IMG/VR virus record: IMGVR_UViG_3300032330_001040
Coordinates: 50,248 to 114,247 of that record
Source of the DNA: a virus
Lineage: Duplodnaviria > Caudoviricetes
Length of the DNA stretch: 64,000 bases
Reading direction: 5' to 3' (one strand)
The translations under genes were made by a program, and so were the position numbers. Below, piece by piece: positions 23,261 through 51,941 of the stretch (its first letter is position 1; every line of letters starts with the position of its first letter). Below the pieces are notes generated by a model. It had not been told where the DNA came from. It did not search any database and worked only from the letters and a program-made list of their open reading frames with translations.

Positions 23261-23398
23261 ATGATACAAGAAGAAAAAGATCCTGTTAAAGAACAGGATC
23301 AAAAACATGAAGATGAAGAATTTGAGTATATCGAAAAGTATAAAAAATATAGAGAGGATCAATTAAAGAATAATCCCTTAATTGACCCCGGTTATTAA
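23261..23398 (+). CDS. Small acidic hypothetical protein (45 aa; not in the ORF track)
   Basis: AGGAG SD; MIQEEKDPVKEQDQKHEDEEFEYIEK... Confidence 0.55.
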   Translation: MIQEEKDPVKEQDQKHEDEEFEYIEKYKKYREDQLKNNPLIDPGY

Positions 23399-25407
23399 AA
23401 CAATACTTTACCTGATACTTGTACCATATTACTTTTAATATCGTCCCATTGTTGCTGACCAGCTCTGATTGAAACATCAGCTTTGTCTTTAACTTTATAA
23501 CTCAAACCACCCAATATCGTTTTATAACTTAAAGTTGTACGACTTGCTTCAGCAATTACACTTAATTTATCTGTAATAGGTTTATCAACATTCACACCAA
23601 TTTCTTCACTAAATTTTGTAGTAGAAGTTGGGTCATAAGTAACTGAAGTCAAAGCTGAACCACCACTAGTTGTACCAGATACTCTATTTTTCTCCCAACG
23701 TACACCAGCAAAAGGCCTTACACCATATACTGATGGTGTATACAATCTGCCTGTAACCCAATTATCTACACCATTTGTTACTGCTGAATTGGACAATCCT
23801 AATTCAGGAATACTATAGTTTGTATCATAACGGTTATGAGCATAACCAACATCATTTTTAATTAACCAATCTTTTACAGTATATAAACTATACACACCAA
23901 CATGGTCTTTAGTTGCACTACCGCCAGCATTAGTACCTGTTAATGTTGAATTAGTCCTATTATATTGTGCACCAACAATCCAGTTGTACTGAATACGTTT
24001 ATCAGCACCAACACCAAATCGATTACCAGTTAAACTGTAACTATCGGCAACACCACCACGATTACCTTCTATTGTTACATAACTTGTAACTTCTTCATCA
24101 CCAGCAAAACGACCATCTTTTACTTTTTGACGGTCTGTTACACGGCTATCTAACCATAAATTATTAGCAAGATTAGAACGCCCAAATTTATTCAATTGGT
24201 CAATACGAGCCAAGTAATCTTTATTAGTTTGTGTTTGGTCAATTTCTAATCCACTAACACTACTTGTTGCAACAGAATTGGTGGTACTTACAGAAACTAC
24301 AGGAGTGCCATTTGTTGTAGTAGATGTATTATCACTATATGTTGTAACAGTTACAGGAGTAGTTGTTGTAGTAGTTGTTATTGGAGTAGTTTTGGTTGTT
24401 GTGATTGTTACAGGAGTCGTATTTGTTACAGTTGTTGTTTGTGTAACACCTAATGTCTTATCTGTTTTAGCGCCACGACTATTTGCTCTATCAACAGTTG
24501 TAGTTGTTATACCGTAAGCAGCTGAAGATGTAACTACTGGAGTTCCATTGACAGAACTTGTGGTTACTGAATCAGTTGTTGTGGTGCTTACTACTGTTGG
24601 AGAACTTGGTGTTGGTGTACTTGGGCCACTTGGCATAGTTGGGTCATTAGAAGCGACAGAATTAAATAATGTTCCATTTTTATTTACTGTACCTAGATTA
24701 TCATTTACAAATAATACAGGACTTAATGATGTATCACCTTGATTGAATATACCAAAACCTACTTTATAATCACCATCTGTGGAAATATTATAGATAATCT
24801 GTTGCCAACCTGTTGAACCATAACTACCTGTAGAATAGTTACCTGTTCCTGGATTTGTTGCACCTAATAAAATATATTGAGCACTTACACCATTGATTGT
24901 ACCAAATGTTGTGGCTGAATTTTTATTAACTAATGTAGCAAGCGAACCGTCATTGAATGGAACATAGTCTGTGCTTGTATATACCCAAGCCATCTTAAAT
25001 GTTGTACCAGCAGTAAATGTAAAATCTTTACTAATCCAAGCCGTACTAGTAATAGACCCACCAATTGAAGCTACTTGACTATTTAATGATGAAATACTTG
25101 AACTACTTAAACCTAGTGCTGTAGTCATACCACTATAATTTATTGAACTAGCTGGTTGCAAACCAACCATATAACTTCCTGTATACGGACTAATAGTCCA
25201 TGTATTAGGACCACAACAAGATATAGTTTGTGTACCATTAACTGTTGCAACTCCGGTACCGGTCGAACCATAATCTCCATTTTTTGTAACTACACTAGGA
25301 CCTCCAACCCAACCATTTAGGTCCCCCGTTCCAAAACTTACATCTGGCGTCTGAGCTAATGCGGACAAGCTTAGAGCCACTAATACTAGTGCTAAAATGC
25401 GTTTCAT
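23395..25407 (-). CDS. Autotransporter-like outer-membrane protein (passenger, Thr-rich stalk, beta-barrel)
   Basis: Signal peptide, P/T/S-rich linker, C-terminal amphipathic beta-strands ending in Phe ('VQVSGKVLF'). Confidence 0.7.
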   Translation of the reverse strand: MKRILALVLVALSLSALAQTPDVSFGTGDLNGWVGGPSVVTKNGDYGSTGTGVATVNGTQTISCCGPNTWTISPYTGSYMVGLQPASSINYSGMTTALGLSSSSISSLNSQVASIGGSITSTAWISKDFTFTAGTTFKMAWVYTSTDYVPFNDGSLATLVNKNSATTFGTINGVSAQYILLGATNPGTGNYSTGSYGSTGWQQIIYNISTDGDYKVGFGIFNQGDTSLSPVLFVNDNLGTVNKNGTLFNSVASNDPTMPSGPSTPTPSSPTVVSTTTTDSVTTSSVNGTPVVTSSAAYGITTTTVDRANSRGAKTDKTLGVTQTTTVTNTTPVTITTTKTTPITTTTTTTPVTVTTYSDNTSTTTNGTPVVSVSTTNSVATSSVSGLEIDQTQTNKDYLARIDQLNKFGRSNLANNLWLDSRVTDRQKVKDGRFAGDEEVTSYVTIEGNRGGVADSYSLTGNRFGVGADKRIQYNWIVGAQYNRTNSTLTGTNAGGSATKDHVGVYSLYTVKDWLIKNDVGYAHNRYDTNYSIPELGLSNSAVTNGVDNWVTGRLYTPSVYGVRPFAGVRWEKNRVSGTTSGGSALTSVTYDPTSTTKFSEEIGVNVDKPITDKLSVIAEASRTTLSYKTILGGLSYKVKDKADVSIRAGQQQWDDIKSNMVQVSGKVLF

Positions 25408-25548
25408 TTTTTATTCCTTTATTTTTAGTAAAGGCGGTTTATTCGACCGCCACCCATAAATCCTTGTATCATTATGTGTGGATAATAATGCTTCATCATT
25501 TCAGACATCAACCATACCTGGTACTCACAATATGGTTCAAAATAATAC

Positions 25549-27549
25549 CTATTTAGAAGTGGCCACATAAGTTCCATTCCAATTTTCTGGCTTGCCTTCT
25601 TCTAACCTCTCCAACATATTTTTATAATATTGCTCGAGTGGATTTTTTTTCTTAATTAATTCTTTAAGTGTTTCTATTGCAGTAAACCAATCACCACTAT
25701 AATAATCTTCTAAGAATTCTTTGTGTTCTTGGGTTTCTTCACCTAAGGTGTAAATTCTAACACCAATCTTTTTACCTTTAACAGCAATACAATCTAATTC
25801 AACAACAGAATATTCATCTTTAACTCTTTCTGCTGTTAATGGTCCTAAAACAATTCTTACACCATATGGTTTACTTTGGCCTTCTAAACGTGATGCAAGA
25901 TTGACTGTATCACCTAAACAAGTATAATCAAATCTTTGGTCAGAACCCATATTACCCACAACAACAGTACCAGTATTGATACCAAGTCCCATACCAAAAG
26001 CAGGTACACCTTCTTTAGTAATAATTTCATTGAACGCATCCAAACTGTCCATCATTTCAAGAGCAGTTTTTACGGCTAGTTTTGCGTGATTGATTTCTTC
26101 TACTGGTGCATTCCAAAATGCCATTTGAGCATCACCAATATATTTGTCTAATGTACCGCTGTTGGTTAAAATCTTTTCGGTCATTGCTGTCATGTACCGA
26201 TTCATAATTTTAGTTAAGCCTTGTACATCATCTCCGTAGTGTTCAGAGATTACTGTGAATCCTCTTACATCAGTAAACATGATGGACAATTCTTTTGATT
26301 CTCCACCCAATACTAATAGTTCAGGATTCTTTTGTAATTTTTCTACTAATGCTTTTGATAGATATGTTCCAAATTGTTTCTTTATCTGAAGTTTGGCCAA
26401 GTACTCAGCCACGAACTTAACTCCATAAGCATGTAACATGATAACGATAAGAGACAAACAGATATAAGTACAATCTCCGAGCCAAAGGTTTTGCTCAAAA
26501 AGAATACGACTAAAGGCATAACTACCAATAACACTAATAACACCAAAGACAATCCCAACATAAGTCCACCTCGTTAAAAATAATAGTAAAATACTTAATA
26601 CGATTAAAGTTAATATTTCTGCACCATCCATCCAATCAGGTCGTTGTATAACAACACCGTTGGCCATCGTGGCAATTACTGCAGCTTGTAAATCTTGAGG
26701 CCATACAGCGCCTTTTGCCGTAGGTACAGGATTACTTATGCCTGCAGCCGATGTGCCTACAATAACAACTGCACCACCAAAATCTTTAGGTAAATCTACC
26801 ATTGATACTGATTTGTTTTGTTGTGACCAATCAATCCAAATTCGTCCTAGATTATCGGTCACAATTGGACCAAATTTAGGAATACGCATCTTCTCTACAC
26901 CATTCTCATTTACTTTGATTTGTGTAGTTGTATCACCAGCCATCACACGGAGAGTTTCCATAGAAAGACTAGGATAAAAACGGTCATTTGATTTAATAAC
27001 TAATGGTATTCTACGATTTACTCCATCAATTTCTGGTAATGTATTTGTTGTACCTACACCAACGGCATTTTTTTCTAATTTTGTAATGTTTGCAATAATG
27101 CCAGGATATTCAATGAGTGGTGCATTACTTGGACCTATAATAGCAATACCAGGACTCTTAGGTTCATTTTTTGATTTGTTTGAAGGAGTATTACTGAGTA
27201 TTACCGGATATTTGAGTAATGTACTAGCCAGCCTATCGTCTTGGCCACTTCGGTCAACATCAGGCATAAGAACATTAAAAACAACAAGACCAGCATTCCT
27301 TCCATAAAGACTTTCGATAATCTTAGCATATTCACTCCTTGGAAATGGCCATTGGCCAAATTTTGTTAAAGTTTCTTCATCTATATTAACTGTATAGATG
27401 TTATTTTCAGTTATTGGTTTTGATGTAATAACAGTATCAAAATATCTTAATCTCACCGATTCTACGAAACTTGGATCCATAACACGAATCGATACCAATA
27501 AACAAAGTGTCAATAAAGCAGTCCAAGGAGATAGTAATATTTTTTTCAT
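25549..27549 (-). CDS. CHASE2-domain class III adenylate cyclase
   Basis: CHASE2 motifs 'VNIDEETL..FGQWPFPR', 'DGVNRRIPL'; TM helices; cyclase motifs 'FTDVRGFT', 'DKYIGDA.MAFW', 'YTCLGDTVNLASRLEG'. Confidence 0.93.
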   Translation of the reverse strand: MKKILLSPWTALLTLCLLVSIRVMDPSFVESVRLRYFDTVITSKPITENNIYTVNIDEETLTKFGQWPFPRSEYAKIIESLYGRNAGLVVFNVLMPDVDRSGQDDRLASTLLKYPVILSNTPSNKSKNEPKSPGIAIIGPSNAPLIEYPGIIANITKLEKNAVGVGTTNTLPEIDGVNRRIPLVIKSNDRFYPSLSMETLRVMAGDTTTQIKVNENGVEKMRIPKFGPIVTDNLGRIWIDWSQQNKSVSMVDLPKDFGGAVVIVGTSAAGISNPVPTAKGAVWPQDLQAAVIATMANGVVIQRPDWMDGAEILTLIVLSILLLFLTRWTYVGIVFGVISVIGSYAFSRILFEQNLWLGDCTYICLSLIVIMLHAYGVKFVAEYLAKLQIKKQFGTYLSKALVEKLQKNPELLVLGGESKELSIMFTDVRGFTVISEHYGDDVQGLTKIMNRYMTAMTEKILTNSGTLDKYIGDAQMAFWNAPVEEINHAKLAVKTALEMMDSLDAFNEIITKEGVPAFGMGLGINTGTVVVGNMGSDQRFDYTCLGDTVNLASRLEGQSKPYGVRIVLGPLTAERVKDEYSVVELDCIAVKGKKIGVRIYTLGEETQEHKEFLEDYYSGDWFTAIETLKELIKKKNPLEQYYKNMLERLEEGKPENWNGTYVATSK

Positions 27550-28619
27550 TTGTTAATTTGTTTAACGGTTAAATTATTTGTTGTTGAATCTTGATTCTGT
27601 AATTGTATTGTGTAAGCATCTTGTGTTAAGTTAATCATATAACCTCTATCTTTATTAATCAAAGCTGTAAAATTTTGTTTTACATTTCTCGTTACTTGCC
27701 AATATGAACCTTTATCAAAAATATAAATCTGTGTTATTGCATTATAACCAACAGTAAAAGCTGCCAACATATAATTATCTAAAGCATTAGTCAATAAATT
27801 AACATCTAATTCATTAATTGCCAATTCGTTATAATCAGCAAATACATCTTTAAATACTTTAACCTCTAAAGCATTTTGGTCCAAACCATTAAATTCTAAA
27901 GCTGAACCAGATTTATTAGTATTCTCAATTGTTTTTTGTGTAATCTCTTTTGGAGGTTTTACAATTAACATATTATTAATTGCCGACTCATTCAACATTA
28001 ACAAAACCGGTCTCATTGGTCTTGTTTCATTAGATGTAGTCATTGTGGCTTGAAATGCTTGATTAAGCACCACAGAACCCATAGCAGTTTGTACTTCAAT
28101 TTCACCAACAGAACCATCTTTATTCGGTAATAGTATAATCATTGATTGACCTATTTCATCAACCGTCATACTAAATGCCGTGCCACGAACAGCAATTGTG
28201 GCAGTCGGAGTATTGATTGCAACTTTACTAGGGTTATTGTGTGCGATACTACCAGAAGCATATCGCACAGTTCCCATTGCTACTTTTAATCCTAACTTAC
28301 CCGCAGATTTATTCTTTGGGTCATATACAAAATCATCAATAACAAGTTTTGAGTTTTCTGTTACTCTAACTTGTGTATCATCTTCAAAAGAAATACCTAC
28401 AACACCGTTACCGGTTTGTACCAAATCATTACTATCAACACCAACATTCTTTTTAACTTCTATACTAGATTTGTTTCTAGTAATTGAAGCAACACCTTTT
28501 TGTTCTGTTACAGAACCAATTGCAGCATTAGTGTTGAACGATAGAAGTAATATTGTTAGTACCACTAATACCACTACCTGTGATATTAACAATCGCTGTG
28601 TTTGCATTTGTTGCTCCAT
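27546..28619 (-). CDS. FecR-domain periplasmic protein
   Basis: 'DLVQTG', 'FEDDTQVRVTENSKLVID', 'TPTATIAVRGTAF'; hydrophobic N-terminus. Confidence 0.85.
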   Translation of the reverse strand: MEQQMQTQRLLISQVVVLVVLTILLLSFNTNAAIGSVTEQKGVASITRNKSSIEVKKNVGVDSNDLVQTGNGVVGISFEDDTQVRVTENSKLVIDDFVYDPKNKSAGKLGLKVAMGTVRYASGSIAHNNPSKVAINTPTATIAVRGTAFSMTVDEIGQSMIILLPNKDGSVGEIEVQTAMGSVVLNQAFQATMTTSNETRPMRPVLLMLNESAINNMLIVKPPKEITQKTIENTNKSGSALEFNGLDQNALEVKVFKDVFADYNELAINELDVNLLTNALDNYMLAAFTVGYNAITQIYIFDKGSYWQVTRNVKQNFTALINKDRGYMINLTQDAYTIQLQNQDSTTNNLTVKQINK

Positions 28620-29289
28620 CTTGTGTAATACTTACTGAGTTGTATCCACCAATTACATTAAGGTCAATTTTATGTCCACTAGCGCCTGATTGTGTTGTTG
28701 TGATATTATTTCTATTACCTGCAATTGCAATTTTAGTTTCGACATTTTTACTATTAATATTACTAACTACTGTATTATAATTACTTGTACTCTGATTATC
28801 AGTAGAAACTCCACCATTACCAAGTGTACTACCAATATTTAATTGATATCTGTAATTATCGGCTTGTCCAGTTGTTCCAATATTTAAAGTAGTGGAGTTG
28901 TTATCACCATTAATATCAATACCAAGTAAACCATTATTGGTACCAAGATTTCCCATATTAAGTACTGTCGCATTAGTATTACCATTTTGTCTAATGTAAG
29001 CTGTTGAGTCTCCACCAATAAAATTACCCGTAATATTATTATTCATACCATCTTGAATGACGGTTAAATTCATATTATTTCCATCAACAACAAATGCTGG
29101 AGAAATTAAATTATTGGGGTCACCAAAATTATTTCCAGAACCTGTTTGTGTAATAGATACGGATGACATATCAGCGTTTGTCTGGTCAATATAAACAGAG
29201 TTGCCTCCACTATCTACTGCACCAGATGAGCCCATAATAAAAGTTAAGGCGATAGCAATAACTATTTGGCCAAACTTTAAGGTTTTCAT
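28528..29289 (-). CDS. Curlin-repeat protein (CsgA/CsgB-like)
   Basis: Signal peptide and repeated N/G-rich 'xIxQxGxxN' units (YIDQ, ITQTGSGN, VIQDGMNN, IRQNGNTN, ITQDG). Confidence 0.7.
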   Translation of the reverse strand: MKTLKFGQIVIAIALTFIMGSSGAVDSGGNSVYIDQTNADMSSVSITQTGSGNNFGDPNNLISPAFVVDGNNMNLTVIQDGMNNNITGNFIGGDSTAYIRQNGNTNATVLNMGNLGTNNGLLGIDINGDNNSTTLNIGTTGQADNYRYQLNIGSTLGNGGVSTDNQSTSNYNTVVSNINSKNVETKIAIAGNRNNITTTQSGASGHKIDLNVIGGYNSVSITQDGATNANTAIVNITGSGISGTNNITSIVQH

Positions 29290-30359
29290 TTTGTTTCCTT
29301 TAAATTGTCTTTTTTAACATACATCTTTGAACCATCCTTTAATGTTACTTCAGCAACATCATTATATTCTGTTGATACAACTTTTACTTCTGTATCTTTA
29401 ACGTAATATTTGAAAGGTCCGTATAGTGGTCCATTCAAGTTTGATTTGTTATAATATAGTTTTACAAAATCTTTTAAATAATAAATTGTTGGTTTTTCTT
29501 CTATAATTGGTTTAACAACTTCTTTAACTACGACTGGCTCCGGTTTTACAACTTCTTCTTGTTTACCTGATTTAAATTTCCATAAACCTTTTTTTTCACC
29601 ATCGAAAATTAATTCTTCTACTGCTTTTTCTGTTGCAGCTTTAAGAACAAAAATACCAACTTCTGTTGAGGACATACCAATTTCATTCTCAAAGGCTTTT
29701 GTTCCTTCATCAAAAAATTTAAATGTTGCTATACCAACTTGATAACTCAATAATGTCTTTCTTACATTAGTTGTCAATAACACCTCACCCGTTTGGGTGC
29801 TGACCACTCTTAATGATATCGTTACAACATCTTCATTATATGATGTTGATGGACCAATTCCTAACCATCTCCAACCAAATCCACCTGTTCTTATGTTCGT
29901 ATCATATGAAACAATGACTGCTTCAAGTATCATACCAGCATAAAGTATTGGTCTTAAATTGGATGGATCTTTTGCCTCATCTCTTGCCGACCTAATCAGT
30001 TGCCGTTCTTTTAATAAATTATCAAGTCCAACTCTTTCTACCACTCTAAACCATTGTCCATCACCAATGTCTTGTAATGCTTTAATTAATATGCCTTCAC
30101 CACCTTGTGTTACTGCTGTAGAAAAACTTGCAACACCAGGTTGTTGTTTTCTTTGACCAGTCGCATCTTTAAATGAATATACTGCAACAACAATTTTACC
30201 ATCATGTGGTGGAGGTACTTCTCTAACAACCTTTTTAGTTTCTTGTGGTTGTTGTAATACTTCAGCATCATTCGTTTCAAATTTCATTGGAGAAAGTGGG
30301 CCTGTAGCGGCACAACCAAATAATCCAAAACACATTAAAATAATCAATATTTTTTTCAT
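29286..30359 (-). CDS. csgG: Curli secretion channel CsgG-like lipoprotein with C-terminal extension
   Basis: Lipobox 'LFGC'; 'VAVYSFKDATGQRK', 'FSTAVTQG', 'WFRVVERVGLDNLLKERQLIR'. Confidence 0.92.
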   Translation of the reverse strand: MKKILIILMCFGLFGCAATGPLSPMKFETNDAEVLQQPQETKKVVREVPPPHDGKIVVAVYSFKDATGQRKQQPGVASFSTAVTQGGEGILIKALQDIGDGQWFRVVERVGLDNLLKERQLIRSARDEAKDPSNLRPILYAGMILEAVIVSYDTNIRTGGFGWRWLGIGPSTSYNEDVVTISLRVVSTQTGEVLLTTNVRKTLLSYQVGIATFKFFDEGTKAFENEIGMSSTEVGIFVLKAATEKAVEELIFDGEKKGLWKFKSGKQEEVVKPEPVVVKEVVKPIIEEKPTIYYLKDFVKLYYNKSNLNGPLYGPFKYYVKDTEVKVVSTEYNDVAEVTLKDGSKMYVKKDNLKETK

Positions 30360-30796
30360 TAGAATTTTAAAGTCCCAATTGGTATTTGAACTTGTGTGAT
30401 ATTACCATCAGCACCGGTAACAGTTAATGAAATTTGGTCGGCTGTTTTGGTATAAACAATTGTGTTACCTTCAATCGTAACAGTTCCACTATTTTGTGGA
30501 TTTTCTCCAAAAAGATTGTTAACTAATTGTGTAGACAACTGAGCATATACACGGCTTTCGAAATTATTTAAAAACTTTTGAAGATTTGTATTATTGGCGG
30601 CTGTTGCCGCATCTTTGATAGCTTGTAGTCTAGCGGCTTCTAAAGATTGTCTACGAGTAGTTTCAGTATTTTCTATTGTTTGAACGTGTGAAGAATACCC
30701 AACACCACTAAATGAAGGAGATTTAAATTGAAACGTTTGTTCTGCACATACTAAACTACTTTTTAGTATTAGTAGAATCATTATTAGTTTTTTCAT
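30359..30796 (-). CDS. csgF: Curli assembly protein CsgF-like
   Basis: Signal peptide then 'TFQFKSPSFSG' (cf. CsgF 'TFQFRNPNFGG'); adjacent to csgG. Confidence 0.8.
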   Translation of the reverse strand: MKKLIMILLILKSSLVCAEQTFQFKSPSFSGVGYSSHVQTIENTETTRRQSLEAARLQAIKDAATAANNTNLQKFLNNFESRVYAQLSTQLVNNLFGENPQNSGTVTIEGNTIVYTKTADQISLTVTGADGNITQVQIPIGTLKF

Positions 30797-31031
30797 CTTT
30801 AATGTCTCGCATCATCAACACAATGTTGATTTTTTGGTTTAACCTAATTAAATCATTATCCAACATTCGTACACGGTCAATTAAAGCAATTAAAACATTA
30901 CTGGCTTCTGAAAGAACAGGTTTAATCTCCTGTGTAGCCCATTTCCATACATAAAATATAAGATAACCCATGCCTCCAGCGGCAACAATAGGAAAACCAT
31001 ATTTGTTAATTAACTCTGCTATATCCATCAT
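30756..31031 (-). CDS. Small single-TM protein (YvrJ-like 'GFPI'), paralog A
   Basis: 'KYGFPIVAAGGMGYLIF' followed by coiled coil. Confidence 0.65.
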   Translation of the reverse strand: MMDIAELINKYGFPIVAAGGMGYLIFYVWKWATQEIKPVLSEASNVLIALIDRVRMLDNDLIRLNQKINIVLMMRDIKDEKTNNDSTNTKK

Positions 31032-31219
31032 ACAGGTATGTATTTTTCTGTTTGATATTTTTGTCTAGCTAATTTTGTTAATTTTGCTTGACAAGTTCTA
31101 ATTTCTTTTATTAAATCAGTTTCTTTTGCATCAATTAGGTAAGAAATGGCAAAATTGGCTGCATCTTCAAAATTGATAGCTGCATCTTCTAAATCATCCA
31201 TACTTTTATATAACGGCAT
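31028..31219 (-). CDS. Small hypothetical protein
   Basis: Fills the operon between the two GFPI paralogs; SD present. Confidence 0.55.
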   Translation of the reverse strand: MPLYKSMDDLEDAAINFEDAANFAISYLIDAKETDLIKEIRTCQAKLTKLARQKYQTEKYIPV

Positions 31220-31221
31220 TT

Positions 31222-31500
31222 TTAATCCTTTCTCGCATCATTTTTTCCATCGGCTCGTGCAATACGGTCGATATCTGGTTTTACACCCATAGCGCTTGAC
31301 ATCAGAGTATCAATTCTGATAACATCATGGTTCATTGTTTTAACACGATTGTCTAATGCGGTAATAATACCACTCAACGATTTGACAGAGGATGTAACCC
31401 CAGCAAGAATGAATTTTAAAGTCAAAAACACAAAATAACCAGCAGAAATTGCTGCGGCTATTGGAAATCCTACTTCAGCAACTAATTTAAAAAAGTCCAT
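31222..31500 (-). CDS. Small single-TM protein (YvrJ-like 'GFPI'), paralog B
   Basis: 'EVGFPIAAAISAGYFVF' followed by coiled coil. Confidence 0.65.
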   Translation of the reverse strand: MDFFKLVAEVGFPIAAAISAGYFVFLTLKFILAGVTSSVKSLSGIITALDNRVKTMNHDVIRIDTLMSSAMGVKPDIDRIARADGKNDARKD

Positions 31501-31507
31501 TTTTATA

Positions 31508-31536
31508 TTGACAATTGAGTTAAATTATAGTATAAT
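31508..31536 (+). promoter_or_regulatory. Sigma70 promoter for the DNA polymerase operon
   Basis: Perfect TTGACA-N17-TATAAT. Confidence 0.85.
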
Positions 31537-31570
31537 CAATGATACATCAATATATGTTTCAATACATACT

Positions 31571-31578
31571 TATTTATG
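31571..31578 (-). promoter_or_regulatory. Putative gp55 late promoter for the curli/cyclase operon
   Basis: CATAAATA on the minus strand, about 70 nt before the first minus-strand ATG. Confidence 0.55.
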
Positions 31579-31614
31579 CCAGTTAAAGCCAGTTAAATTT
31601 ATAAAGGAAATCAA

Positions 31615-50030: not shown

Positions 50031-51941
50031 ATGTTTGCAAAAAATAAAGTAACTCAATCAATGCTTGATGCTGTTAATCAAGTTTTAACTGAAAAATTGG
50101 ATGAAGCTTCTTATGGCGATTTACATAAAAAATGGAGTAAAACTCATAATATAGAATATCATTCACATACTATTTGGCCAAAACATACCGTAACCAAATT
50201 TGACAACGAAAAAGATGCTGAAGCACATGCTAAGAAAACGAATGGTACTGTTCGTATGTACGTTGGTGATAAATTAACTAAAGAAGCCATGGAAATGGAT
50301 GAAGCTTCCTTGAAGATTCCTACTGCAACTGGTACTAAAGTTCTCGGTGGTCGTTACGGTAACTCCGCAAAAGCTCACACAGACCAACATAAGAATCCTT
50401 TTGAAAAAGGACCAAGCAAGTCTCAATTAAAAGGCATCAAAGCGCCAACTAAGAAAGAATTGAAATCTATTGGTGAAGAAGAAGTGCAAGAAGAACTAAA
50501 AGGTAATCAATCTAAAATTGATGCTAACCATAATGGTAAAATTGACGGACAAGACTTTGCTATTCTCCGTGGCAAGAAAAAAGTTAAAACTGAAGGAATG
50601 GAATTTGCAAACAAATTAATTTCTACTATTGCTGAACGTGACGAAGGTAAACCAGGTTTAATGTTCAAGAAAATTGCTTCTAAAGCTGCAAAAAAATATG
50701 GTTCACAAGAAGCAGGTAATCGTGTTGCTGGTTTCATTCGTAAGAAAGTATTGGCTAAAGAAGATATTAGTGAAGAACAATTAGATGAAATGATTAATGA
50801 AGTTCTTTCTAAAGACGCTTCTGCTGGTGATTACATTCACGACTTTGTTCATTCAAAAAATCCTAAGTTTGCTGGCAAATCTACAGCAGAACGTAAAAAA
50901 ATGGCTCTTGGTGCTTATTATGGTGCACAAAAAGAAGAAGTTGAATTGAACGAAGATGAAAGTCTTGATTCTATTGCCAAAAAACATGGTATGGAATATA
51001 AGAAAACTACTTATGGTGCAGGAATGAAACACAAAACCAAAGGTGAAATTTCTATTAATCGTTATGGAGAATGGCATCATTATCCTGCTGGTTCAAAATC
51101 ATCTAAAGCTCATGGAAGTAGTGATAATAACTTTGCTAGTTTGGATAAACATCTTTCTTCAATGAAAGAAGAAGTTGATGATTATGAAATGAACAAAAAT
51201 AAATCTGAACCAGAAGAAACTGCTGCTAGAAAATCAATCAAAGCTAAAGATACAGAAAAGAATCAGAAAATTGATAATCTTGATGTAAAATATGGTACAC
51301 CAAATTCATTTAAATGTGAAGAAGTTGAATTAGATGAAGCTGCACCAAAAAAGATGGATGATGTAATGCGTGGTAAACAAAATTTAGAGCCTGTAAAAAA
51401 AGGTGTTGTTGGAACAGTAAAGAGTGATTTAAAAAACTTTAAAAACTTTTTAACTGGCAAAAAAGAAACTAATGAAGCAATTAACCCAAGTAATCAAACT
51501 ATTGATACATTAGCTGGTCGTAGCAAAAAAGTTTCAAAAGCCGCTAAGATGGATAATGACAATACATCAGCTAAAGTAGAATTAAAAGCTGAAGAGGTTG
51601 AATCTTTAGAAGAAGATAGATATTTGGAAAAGTTTCTTTCATCAAGAGGTATTAATCCTAAATTTGTAGACAGAAATACAAAAGTTGCTCATGCAAAATC
51701 AAATGAATATAAATCTTGGTTAAAAAATCATAAAGATATTATAAGAAATGAATCTAATGATGTTCCATTTGATAAGCCTTACAAAACAGTTAAAGAACCT
51801 ACTGTTAAAGATAAATCTGGTGCTGTACATACTCCAATGTCCCGTGCAAGAGATTTGGCAAAACAAGCTCTTAAAAAAGTAAAAAATGAAACTATGATGG
51901 GCAAAGCAGGCGCTACGTCTGAGAGCAAAAATAAATGGTAA
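50031..51941 (+). CDS. Modular putative internal head polyprotein
   Basis: Basic modules separated by 'EEVELxE'-type linkers; EF-hand-like 'DANHNGKIDGQD'. Confidence 0.55.
   Translation: MFAKNKVTQSMLDAVNQVLTEKLDEASYGDLHKKWSKTHNIEYHSHTIWPKHTVTKFDNEKDAEAHAKKTNGTVRMYVGDKLTKEAMEMDEASLKIPTATGTKVLGGRYGNSAKAHTDQHKNPFEKGPSKSQLKGIKAPTKKELKSIGEEEVQEELKGNQSKIDANHNGKIDGQDFAILRGKKKVKTEGMEFANKLISTIAERDEGKPGLMFKKIASKAAKKYGSQEAGNRVAGFIRKKVLAKEDISEEQLDEMINEVLSKDASAGDYIHDFVHSKNPKFAGKSTAERKKMALGAYYGAQKEEVELNEDESLDSIAKKHGMEYKKTTYGAGMKHKTKGEISINRYGEWHHYPAGSKSSKAHGSSDNNFASLDKHLSSMKEEVDDYEMNKNKSEPEETAARKSIKAKDTEKNQKIDNLDVKYGTPNSFKCEEVELDEAAPKKMDDVMRGKQNLEPVKKGVVGTVKSDLKNFKNFLTGKKETNEAINPSNQTIDTLAGRSKKVSKAAKMDNDNTSAKVELKAEEVESLEEDRYLEKFLSSRGINPKFVDRNTKVAHAKSNEYKSWLKNHKDIIRNESNDVPFDKPYKTVKEPTVKDKSGAVHTPMSRARDLAKQALKKVKNETMMGKAGATSESKNKW

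Follow-up and report, generated by a model that had tools for sequence, protein, structure and literature searches.

An intact copy of the viral curli cassette, with FecR and CHASE2 cyclase genes, in an uncultured aquatic T4-like phage

Why would a phage carry genes for the export of bacterial surface fibers together with genes for a membrane sensor? The question was raised by a block of genes on the minus strand (23395–31500) of a 64,000-nucleotide stretch of viral DNA, positions 50,248 to 114,247 of IMG/VR virus record IMGVR_UViG_3300032330_001040; this whole stretch is called the window below. The block encodes homologs of the curli proteins CsgF and CsgG, a curlin-repeat protein, a FecR-domain protein, a CHASE2 adenylate cyclase and an autotransporter-type protein, preceded by three small proteins (sm1, sm2, and sm3). 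In it we recognize the accessory cassette of aquatic T4-like phages that has been published as "viral T8SS/curli" (type VIII secretion system), here in an intact copy. With regard to its function, we favor, at a probability of roughly 0.6, a late and replaceable accessory cassette that would rebuild the surface of the infected cell and couple the state of the envelope, via FecR and CHASE2, to the cyclase, a mechanism that we infer from the parts described here.

The cassette and its genomic setting

The tblastn searches with CsgG and with the cyclase retrieved the same cultured phages, HTVC008M and four Melnitz isolates, in which the genes stand in a row of two small proteins, CsgF, CsgG, curlin, FecR, a second curlin, and adenylate cyclase. 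Three further records, two of Acinetobacter phages and one unclassified, matched the cyclase partially, in its catalytic domain only; CsgG was not found in Pelagibacter phage Mosig. CsgF and CsgG were described earlier in pelagimyophages, for which "sibling capture" was proposed (Zaragoza-Solas et al., 2020; PMC7029224); a preliminary description of the window had mentioned earlier reports of csgF/csgG in some marine T4-like phages. The full region, with FecR, adenylate cyclase and an upstream "histidine kinase," was reported in podo- and myo-pelagiphages along with data on its worldwide occurrence and its expression; the roles considered for it were regulation, aggregation, superinfection and import (Wittmers et al., 2022; PMC9599517). 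The novelty that the preliminary description saw in the full set was thus lost, the curli part having been published in 2020 and FecR and the cyclase in 2022. The cyclase and FecR are discussed in PMC9599517 and are not mentioned in the text of PMC7029224 or of the Melnitz report (Buchholz et al., 2022; PMC9004378); CHASE2 and an autotransporter are not mentioned in the text of any of the three.

Three sets of loci were surveyed, comprising viral contigs seeded with the autotransporter, metagenomes searched with the cyclase and viral contigs seeded with CsgG. The metagenome scan was seeded with a 70%-identical cyclase and gave at least 563 relatives, of which 80 were kept; the CsgG-seeded scan of viral contigs gave 37 loci. 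About 115 loci were surveyed in all (L numbers below denote these loci or contigs), and the window proteins were compared with them by tblastn. The conserved frame comprised sm1, sm3, CsgF, CsgG, a curlin protein, FecR and usually the CHASE2 cyclase. The FecR gene was present in every csg locus with enough flank. Of the 16 CsgG-seeded loci whose sequence extends 6 kb or more past FecR, 15 contained the cyclase. The co-occurrence of csg, FecR and cyclase genes in related phages, on which the preliminary description had staked its proposal, was therefore observed. Cyclase relatives occurred in marine and fresh water metagenomes on contigs of up to 341 kb; contigs of 340–365 kb hold the 70%-identical cyclases, and the flanks of the related long contigs carry T4-like phage genes.

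Between FecR and the cyclase there was a variable slot of 0–6 kb, which usually begins with an N/G/S/T/Q-rich curlin-type protein and is empty in the window. It holds exported proteins, including extra curlins, fusions of a head resembling carbohydrate-binding modules with curlin repeats, and autotransporters with swappable heads. In some phages it also contains unrelated genes, namely those for a DNA ligase, for GT4 glycosyltransferases, for a RimK-like ligase and for a nuclease, and a metallophosphoesterase gene that immediately follows FecR.

The features of the block, in the order of its transcription, are the following:

31571–31578, minus strand: CATAAATA, a T4-late-promoter-like motif, 71 nucleotides (nt) upstream of the first ATG
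31222–31500, minus strand: sm1, 92 amino acids (aa), single-pass membrane protein, "GFPI" motif present, C-terminal helix (phrog_18771, 5e-35)
31028–31219, minus strand: sm2, 63 aa, a soluble acidic open reading frame (ORF) between sm1 and sm3, seen as ORF and translation
30756–31031, minus strand: sm3, 91 aa, paralog of sm1 (phrog_18771, 4e-34)
30359–30796, minus strand: CsgF homolog with a signal peptide (Pfam CsgF, 1e-16, full length)
29286–30359, minus strand: CsgG lipoprotein pore with a 92-aa C-terminal extension (Pfam CsgG, 5e-50)
28528–29289, minus strand: curlin-repeat (CsgA/B-like) protein, 253 aa, with a signal peptide, N/G/S/T/Q-rich (family-level matches)
27546–28619, minus strand: FecR-domain protein (Pfam FecR, 8e-9)
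25549–27549, minus strand: membrane protein with CHASE2 and class III adenylate cyclase domains (Pfam CHASE2, 1e-35; Guanylate_cyc, 4e-21)
25425–25577, minus strand: 50-aa ORF between the cyclase and the autotransporter, conserved in relatives, coding uncertain
23395–25407, minus strand: autotransporter-type surface protein (Pfam Autotransporter beta-domain, 3e-12)
23279–23389, minus strand: two terminator-like hairpins (23389–23355 and 23300–23279) 3′ of the autotransporter stop

The ORFs, their order and their coordinates agreed with the preliminary description. So did its statement that the first eight genes overlap or abut; at the gene junctions of the block the overlaps are 1–92 nt and the gaps 2 and 17 nt, and the overlap of the FecR and cyclase genes is 4 nt in the window and in many relatives. 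In the profile searches that it had proposed, CsgG, CsgF, FecR, CHASE2, Guanylate_cyc and Autotransporter exceeded the Pfam threshold, and curlin was recognized at the family level. CsgG and CsgF were matched by NCBIfam models as well.

The record has a length of 114 kb and a completeness rating of 69%, and the window makes up its right-hand 64 kb. Proteins encoded in the window include a T4-type major capsid protein, the gp43 polymerase, helicases and an SbcC-like nuclease, and the capsid protein shared 61–65% identity with those of Methylophilales phage Melnitz and of Pelagibacter phages Mosig and HTVC008M. On account of this gene content and capsid identity, the source is an uncultured aquatic T4-like myovirus that is distantly related to these three phages. 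The cassette is located between a tRNA cluster and gene 43 (DNA polymerase). It is the sole genuine minus-strand block of the window, as had been noticed before: the remaining minus-strand ORFs that reach 120 aa all lie within plus-strand genes, and the GC skew is negative over 24–32 kb only. A megablast search of the block against 50,697 phage records returned tRNA matches only.

A location on the strand opposite to all neighbors, in a variable region where two relatives (L004/L005) carry other DNA, could mean that a host operon was captured recently and is decaying, or that the assembly is chimeric. However, all ORFs are intact, and the cassette genes are under purifying selection, with ratios of nonsynonymous to synonymous substitution (dN/dS) of 0.03–0.22 for all eight genes in the comparison of the window with L007. 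The G+C content of the block is that of the phage, the same junctions recur in the independent contigs L007/L096, L092, and L093, hundreds of phage contigs carry the cassette, and no cellular genome with the combined set was found. Decay and chimerism, which the preliminary description had itself named as fatal to its proposal, were excluded because of the purifying selection and the recurring junctions, and the probability left to them is negligible.

A search for bacteria that could have donated the combined cassette found none; the full-set contigs that are assigned to metagenome-assembled genomes (MAGs) all have phage-like gene content or G+C. These contigs (L008, L010, and L129–L138) look like mis-binned phage contigs. 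The MAG names among them (L008/L138, L010/L129, L130, L131, and L133–L137) were Bacteroidetes, Luteolibacter, Flavobacteriaceae, Rhodobacteraceae, Legionellales, Pirellulales, and Polynucleobacter. The Luteolibacter contig (L010/L129) has a G+C of 0.32, and its cyclase, CsgF and FecR were 50, 79, and 65% identical to those of the window, respectively. Contamination of bins by such contigs could mislead the inference of hosts and donors.

The cassette behaves as a replaceable unit among close relatives. The flanks of contigs L004 and L005 shared 83–96% nucleotide identity with the window on both sides and carry gene 43 and the autotransporter, and ~880 bp with three small membrane ORFs replaces window positions 25427–31596 (sm1 through the cyclase). 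The replacing segment (L004:1433–2238, L005:5138–6015) encodes proteins of 156, 62, and 47 aa that show no similarity to sm1, sm2, or sm3, and it may represent another accessory unit that can occupy this site. As both contigs are short, the cassette could be located elsewhere in genomes of this type. The autotransporter had been described as part of the block, but the idea that it is an obligate one is not supported: these close relatives have it, with other DNA at the locus in place of the remaining block genes.

With respect to expression, the window holds 11 NATAAATA sites on the plus strand and 2 on the minus strand, whereas its base composition predicts ~36 and ~23. Several of the plus-strand sites closely precede gene starts, among them that of the major capsid gene. 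The late-promoter motif that had been reported upstream of the block was confirmed: CATAAATA at 31578–31571 is one of the two minus-strand NATAAATA sites in the 64 kb and sits in the 114-bp gap before the operon. Its position is meaningful, because NATAAATA is depleted and only two minus-strand copies exist in the window. At the 3′ end, the hairpin at 23389–23355 has 16 pairs and that at 23300–23279 has 9 pairs followed by a T-run, and no terminator-like site was seen between the cyclase and autotransporter genes. The block thus reads as one putative late operon of ~8.1 kb. Relative to base composition, NATAAATA was depleted ~3-fold in the plus and ~10-fold in the minus orientation, a clear mark of selection against stray late promoters. 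One plus-strand NATAAATA site (23158), located in the gap that follows the autotransporter gene, reads into the operon from its 3′ end; it could be due to chance or be a late antisense or convergent promoter. Sigma-70-type promoters were rejected for the block, as promoter-like sites were about as frequent in the real as in the shuffled sequence (45 vs. 41), and the perfect TTGACA-17-TATAAT in the gap faces gene 43, opposite to the block.

Surface proteins and small membrane proteins

Residues 6–265 of CsgG align to E. coli CsgG (3x2r, 2e-45), and the lipobox LFGC is present. In the constriction loop the equivalent of Phe56 is kept, and the equivalents of Asn55 and Tyr51 are Ser and Gln. The 92-aa C-terminal extension was matched in the closest relatives only. 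The CsgG homolog of L006 (L006:2877–4109) carries a C-terminal bacterial SH3 domain (SH3_4, 1e-6), and lineage-specific periplasmic or surface add-ons to the pore seem to be common. The mature CsgF begins with TFQFKSPSFSG (motif TFQF..P.F.G kept), which we take to resemble the segment of E. coli CsgF that inserts into the CsgG barrel; CsgF alone found no PDB sequence match by phmmer. The 253-aa curlin protein alone stayed below the Pfam threshold (Curlin_rpt, E 0.022), but Curlin_rpt was matched by 26 of 30 homologs aligned from related loci, and the family profile matched the solved curlins 8c50 (5e-16) and E. coli CsgA 8enq (2e-5). By these profiles the protein belongs to the curlin family, and amyloid formation is only predicted. 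CsgE (PF10627) was not found in the 114-kb record, which is 69% complete, nor among the ORFs of the block, in line with the earlier remark that no csgE was visible.

A pore without its gate could serve import, an idea raised previously (Zaragoza-Solas et al., 2020, PMC7029224; Wittmers et al., 2022, PMC9599517). An ungated CsgG would admit larger nutrients or cofactors to the periplasm of a streamlined host, and FecR would sense a ligand, such as an iron complex. The undetected CsgE, the replaced Tyr51 and Asn55 equivalents and the name of FecR, which derives from iron-citrate signaling, all fit this idea. However, CsgF and the curlin proteins are conserved under purifying selection, and a bare import pore needs neither. 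The FecR protein is without an anti-sigma domain, no TonB-dependent transducer partner was seen, and the variable slot carries surface-display proteins and no transporters. We consider an uptake channel very unlikely.

The autotransporter consists of a signal peptide, a ~240-aa beta-sandwich head, a Thr/Pro-rich stalk and a C-terminal barrel ending in Phe. PF03797 scored 47–50 bits against a cut-off of 26 and was matched by 15 of 20 family members. The family profile matched EstA (3kvn) weakly (E 0.002), and the barrel alone found no PDB sequence match. The dN/dS of the gene was 0.22 (vs. L007). The model of the head (pLDDT 89.7) had carbohydrate-binding modules and MAM domains as its best fold matches (Z 8–9.3, root-mean-square deviation (rmsd) ~3 Å), and a weak match to the PEP-CTERM exoprotein family was found. 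These likenesses suggest, but do not show, that the head binds glycan.

The gene is connected with the cassette by its position, by a shared head and by head exchange, and its place varies. It directly follows FecR in L099, L102, L104, and L006, lies between FecR and the cyclase in L058, and follows the cyclase in the window, L007, L092, and L093. In the last three contigs the 50-aa ORF is also found with 62–66% identity; it is rich in aromatic residues and matched no family. The same head occurs N-terminal to curlin repeats in L008, L057, L086, and L087 and in the 5′-truncated ORFs of L045 and L064, which indicates that the same exported head is used on a type V barrel or on a type VIII substrate. 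Heads were also swapped on the conserved stalk and barrel in L093 and L021. In L092 (9931–11738) and L093 (6308–8362), the stalk and barrel are 68–69% identical to those of the window and the head is completely different, while their cassette proteins are 82–96% identical to those of the window. In relatives this close, a different head suggests that the swap was recent. The head or the barrel was shared by 313 of 1.8 billion cluster representatives, in many architectures.

The small proteins sm1 and sm3 are paralogs of one phage family (phrog_18771), as the earlier term "GFPI membrane paralogs" implied. The likeness of sm1 to YvrJ is weak (Pfam E 0.15; YvrJ is its nearest named Atlas cluster, 0.89), and sm3 matched the holin phrog_4898 weakly, over residues 1–21 only. 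Both are the best-conserved parts of the cassette, with 60–96% identity in most loci compared with ~45% for CsgG, and the dN/dS of sm1 was 0.03 (vs. L007). In the surveyed loci sm3 stands beside sm1 wherever it was found, and the pair is located before CsgF or on the opposite strand beyond the cyclase. Among the 50,697 phage records, sm1/sm3 occurred in six, all with CsgG (HTVC008M and Melnitz isolates). By position, they are probably the genes called "HK" (histidine kinase) in PMC9599517. No kinase family was matched by sm1 or sm3 even at E values of up to 10, and HisKA/DHp and HATPase_c are absent; the label looks wrong, because proteins of 91–92 aa without a kinase domain are concerned. The sm2 protein matched no family and is kept in few relatives (L094, 86%; L098, 48%; L117–L119, 38%), and therefore may not be a core part.

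For Melnitz, a pore that times lysis was proposed (Buchholz et al., 2022; PMC9004378), in which CsgG/CsgF, perhaps with the YvrJ/holin-like sm proteins, would act as a gated pinholin or secretin, depolarizing or opening the envelope as infection ends. Besides this published proposal, the late-promoter motif, the undetected CsgE gate and the single-pass sm1/sm3 with their weak N-terminal likeness to YvrJ and a holin family are in its favor. However, CsgG is an outer-membrane pore and cannot depolarize the inner membrane. Moreover, the cassette, including sm1/sm3, is replaced at this locus in close relatives and CsgG was not found in Mosig, which argues against an essential lysis function, and the curlin proteins, displayed heads and cyclase would be left unexplained. 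Lysis timing is thus quite unlikely to be the role of the cassette.

FecR, the CHASE2 cyclase and the proposed coupling

In its AlphaFold2 model (pLDDT 82.6), the FecR-domain protein comprises a transmembrane helix (residues 2–26), a FecR/PupR sensor domain, a disordered linker and a C-terminal beta domain. Residues 62–218 matched the PupR sensor domain (6ovk) with Z 15.3 and rmsd 2.7 over 134 residues. There is no anti-sigma domain in the model, as just the transmembrane helix precedes the sensor domain, and no extracytoplasmic function (ECF) sigma factor or TonB-dependent transducer was found among the ORFs of the block. Residues 31–126 matched the RIN domain of an RTX adhesin (5ix9; Z 7.2, 26% identity), a periplasmic domain that plugs the adhesin into a TolC-type pore; an assignment of this match to the C-terminal domain was rejected, as VIA-align placed it at residues 31–126. 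The C-terminal region forms a compact eight-strand beta domain in the model and found no PDB sequence match. Its last ~45 residues weakly resemble one curlin repeat: hhalign gave P 0.003 with a probability of 11% (control P 0.62), and curlin scores of the real C-termini exceeded the 95th percentile of shuffled ones in 40% of 65 related proteins. The curlin repeat is only suggestive, and both it and the RIN-like match are leads rather than results.

The cyclase (phrog_35576, 1e-252) carries CHASE2 at residues 15–323 (Pfam, 123.9 bits), flanked in the translation by hydrophobic stretches at residues ~8–24 and 310–378, and the output domain follows. The catalytic domain was aligned with P. aeruginosa CyaB (3r5g) and also with 1wc0, 2w01, and 6fht, and Spirulina CyaC was among the aligned relatives. 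The alignment to 3r5g bore out the metal Asp residues (D427, D473), the ATP-specifying Lys (K469) and the N..R pair (N550, R554) that had been pointed out, and the second substrate-specifying position is Thr543; we take the Lys/Thr pair to mark class IIIb cyclases. The enzyme keeps all class III catalytic residues, and the synthesis of cyclic AMP (cAMP) is predicted. In L065 (7360–8112) and L121 (5036–5785), as in L120–L127 generally, a calcineurin-like metallophosphoesterase gene directly follows FecR. This superfamily includes the cAMP phosphodiesterase CpdA, and the gene product could be the degrading partner of the cyclase.

Species-representative genomes were scanned with the phage FecR profile; the first ten matches were MAG-binned phage contigs and the other 70 were cellular. 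A CHASE2 protein with a cyclase or PP2C output was encoded within 8 kb of FecR in 28 of the 70 cellular loci. At least 21 of the 28 had a full-length CHASE2 cyclase, 29–37% identical to the phage enzyme, and the CHASE2-cyclase loci belonged to Myxococcota, Alphaproteobacteria, Omnitrophota, Planctomycetia, and Spirochaetales. CsgG or CsgF was near the cellular FecR genes in none of the 70 loci. FecR-CHASE2 pairs have been described with a histidine-kinase output in the Burkholderia BiofilmReg operon (PMC5192318) and with a cyclase in the CHASE2-cyclase cluster of Campylobacterota (PMC9239204). In S. meliloti the CHASE2 cyclases CyaD1/CyaD2/CyaK need the outer-membrane barrel protein NsrA for their activation (cited in PMC13001267). 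Because cellular FecR-CHASE2 pairs are frequent and none lies near csg, the phage cassette looks like a curli unit fused with a sensor unit, FecR-CHASE2, of cellular origin.

In several Pelagibacter genomes, a gene for a CHASE2-SpoIIE protein (PP2C phosphatase) lies two genes upstream of that for an 874-aa FecR-domain protein. The row in Candidatus Pelagibacter ubique HIMB4 (L145:3836–11100) consists of an IalB-like protein, CHASE2-SpoIIE, a 465-aa protein, the 874-aa FecR protein and a 233-aa protein, and similar rows were found in L146, L148, L150, L156, and L200. This SAR11 pair with a phosphatase output would be a host sensor in a clade said to have very few.

The reading that we prefer, a surface-rebuilding cassette coupled to the cyclase, would proceed as follows. 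The operon would be transcribed late in infection, its products would be exported by Sec, and CsgG and CsgF would form an outer-membrane pore. The curlin protein would be secreted and polymerize on the surface, and the autotransporter would show its glycan-binding-like head on the Thr-rich stalk. Curlin fibers and the displayed head would give the infected cell a new, sticky surface, leading to aggregation, attachment or the exclusion of other phages. The membrane-anchored FecR protein would touch the periplasmic side of this machinery as well as the CHASE2 domain, and the state of the envelope or of secretion might thereby tune the cytoplasmic cyclase.

Several observations weigh against this reading. 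Melnitz-infected cells showed no clumping (Buchholz et al., 2022; PMC9004378), CsgE was not found, the head has fold matches of middling strength that do not establish a function, and the autotransporter persists where the cassette is replaced (L004, L005). A domain binding cyclic nucleotide monophosphates (cNMP) was not found in the phage record of the window or in the complete genomes of HTVC008M and Melnitz, and neither this domain nor class III cyclases were found in four Pelagibacter (SAR11) genomes. Since no cNMP-binding domain was found, a cAMP receptor is missing for at least the SAR11 phages. The suggestion that the phage reprograms host CRP is not supported by the same searches, which covered the phage record, the two complete cultured relatives and the four SAR11 genomes. 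Finally, the link between the cyclase and the rest of the cassette is not uniform. No cyclase was seen on the sequenced part of L006, L099, L102, and L104, in L102 over a further 4.5 kb after the autotransporter; ligase, glycosyltransferase or nuclease genes lie between FecR and the cyclase in some phages; and the cyclase is inverted in L010/L129 and converges with FecR.

These last observations would be expected if two unrelated cassettes stood side by side in a hypervariable island, a csg-FecR surface module and an independent CHASE2 cyclase that acts, for example, against host defense or on host nucleotide pools. That FecR stays with csg where no cyclase was seen (L102 and others), that the cellular FecR-CHASE2 pairs are not near csg (0/70) and that no cAMP receptor was found in the searched phage and SAR11 genomes also favor such a separation. 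On the other hand, all but one of the 16 CsgG-seeded loci have the cyclase nearby, at a distance of a few kb, the FecR and cyclase genes overlap by 4 nt in the window and many relatives, and the partnering of FecR and CHASE2 in cells makes it unlikely that a FecR gene lying between csg and CHASE2 is unconnected to CHASE2. An independent cyclase is therefore considered unlikely. The relay from FecR to CHASE2 proposed in the preliminary description has good gene-neighborhood support (28/70 cellular loci), but a simple relay is not supported as the purpose of the system, as some lineages have csg, FecR and the autotransporter without a cyclase detected in the sequenced stretch of the contig. Likewise, the full-set surface structure with FecR/CHASE2 signaling stands as far as the genes are intact, co-oriented and co-occurring, and falls short in that the autotransporter is separable and the cyclase was not seen in some contigs.

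A more specific form of the surface-rebuilding cassette can be offered tentatively, as one possibility. The cassette would be a surface organelle with a sensor, in which FecR is a periplasmic adaptor that replaces CsgE, docks on the CsgG pore or on curlin subunits in transit and reports their state to CHASE2; the cargo would be modular, with one glycan-binding-like head exported as a curlin fusion or on an autotransporter, and in SAR11-like hosts cAMP would act on a receptor of a new type.

The cassette is very widespread and gives SAR11 and OM43 cells an envelope machine that those cells do not encode. If infected cells indeed become sticky or shielded, effects on particle formation in the ocean and on phage competition would follow, and if the cyclase signals in hosts without a known cAMP receptor, there is a receptor to find. 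The value of the window itself is modest, as it is one more copy. It adds a natural comparison with and without the cassette, the sharing of cargo heads between autotransporters and curlin fusions, and the correction of the "histidine kinase" label.

Comparison with known systems

The closest known systems are the viral T8SS of HTVC008M (KC465899, 6900–13807), Melnitz gp97–104 and the HTVC023P-type podoviruses. Like HTVC008M and Melnitz, the window has two small genes, CsgF, CsgG, curlin, FecR and adenylate cyclase in the same order, with protein identities of 33–66% (28% for the curlin-repeat protein). Unlike them, it is without the second curlin gene between FecR and the cyclase, has the 50-aa ORF and the autotransporter after the cyclase, and its CsgG carries the 92-aa C-terminal extension. 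The location also differs: the block stands beside gene 43 on the opposite strand, whereas the cassette of HTVC008M and Melnitz lies between ssb and baseplate genes.

In comparison with the E. coli curli system (csgBAC-csgDEFG; 6l7a, 6si7, 8enq), the CsgG lipoprotein pore, the CsgF insertion motif and a secreted curlin-repeat subunit are shared. In contrast to bacterial curli, no CsgE, CsgC, or CsgD was seen in the phage, and the constriction loop is partly changed. The sm1, sm3, FecR, cyclase and autotransporter genes are extras foreign to bacterial csg operons.

The autotransporter resembles those of type Va (EstA, 3kvn) in its signal peptide, passenger, linker, C-terminal beta-domain and terminal aromatic residue. 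It differs from them in that it is phage-encoded, its passenger is a small beta-sandwich like those of carbohydrate-binding modules on a Thr/Pro-rich stalk with no beta-helix, and its head is swapped among relatives and is found in other phages as part of curlin-repeat proteins. FecR/PupR regulators have the sensor fold in common with the phage FecR, but not the anti-sigma domain and the partners. The cellular FecR partners differ in length and domains (LysM in Burkholderia, 874 aa in SAR11), and the phage version is joined to a secretion pore. As in the cellular FecR-CHASE2 pairs, the phage cassette encodes an exported FecR-domain protein beside a CHASE2 membrane sensor.

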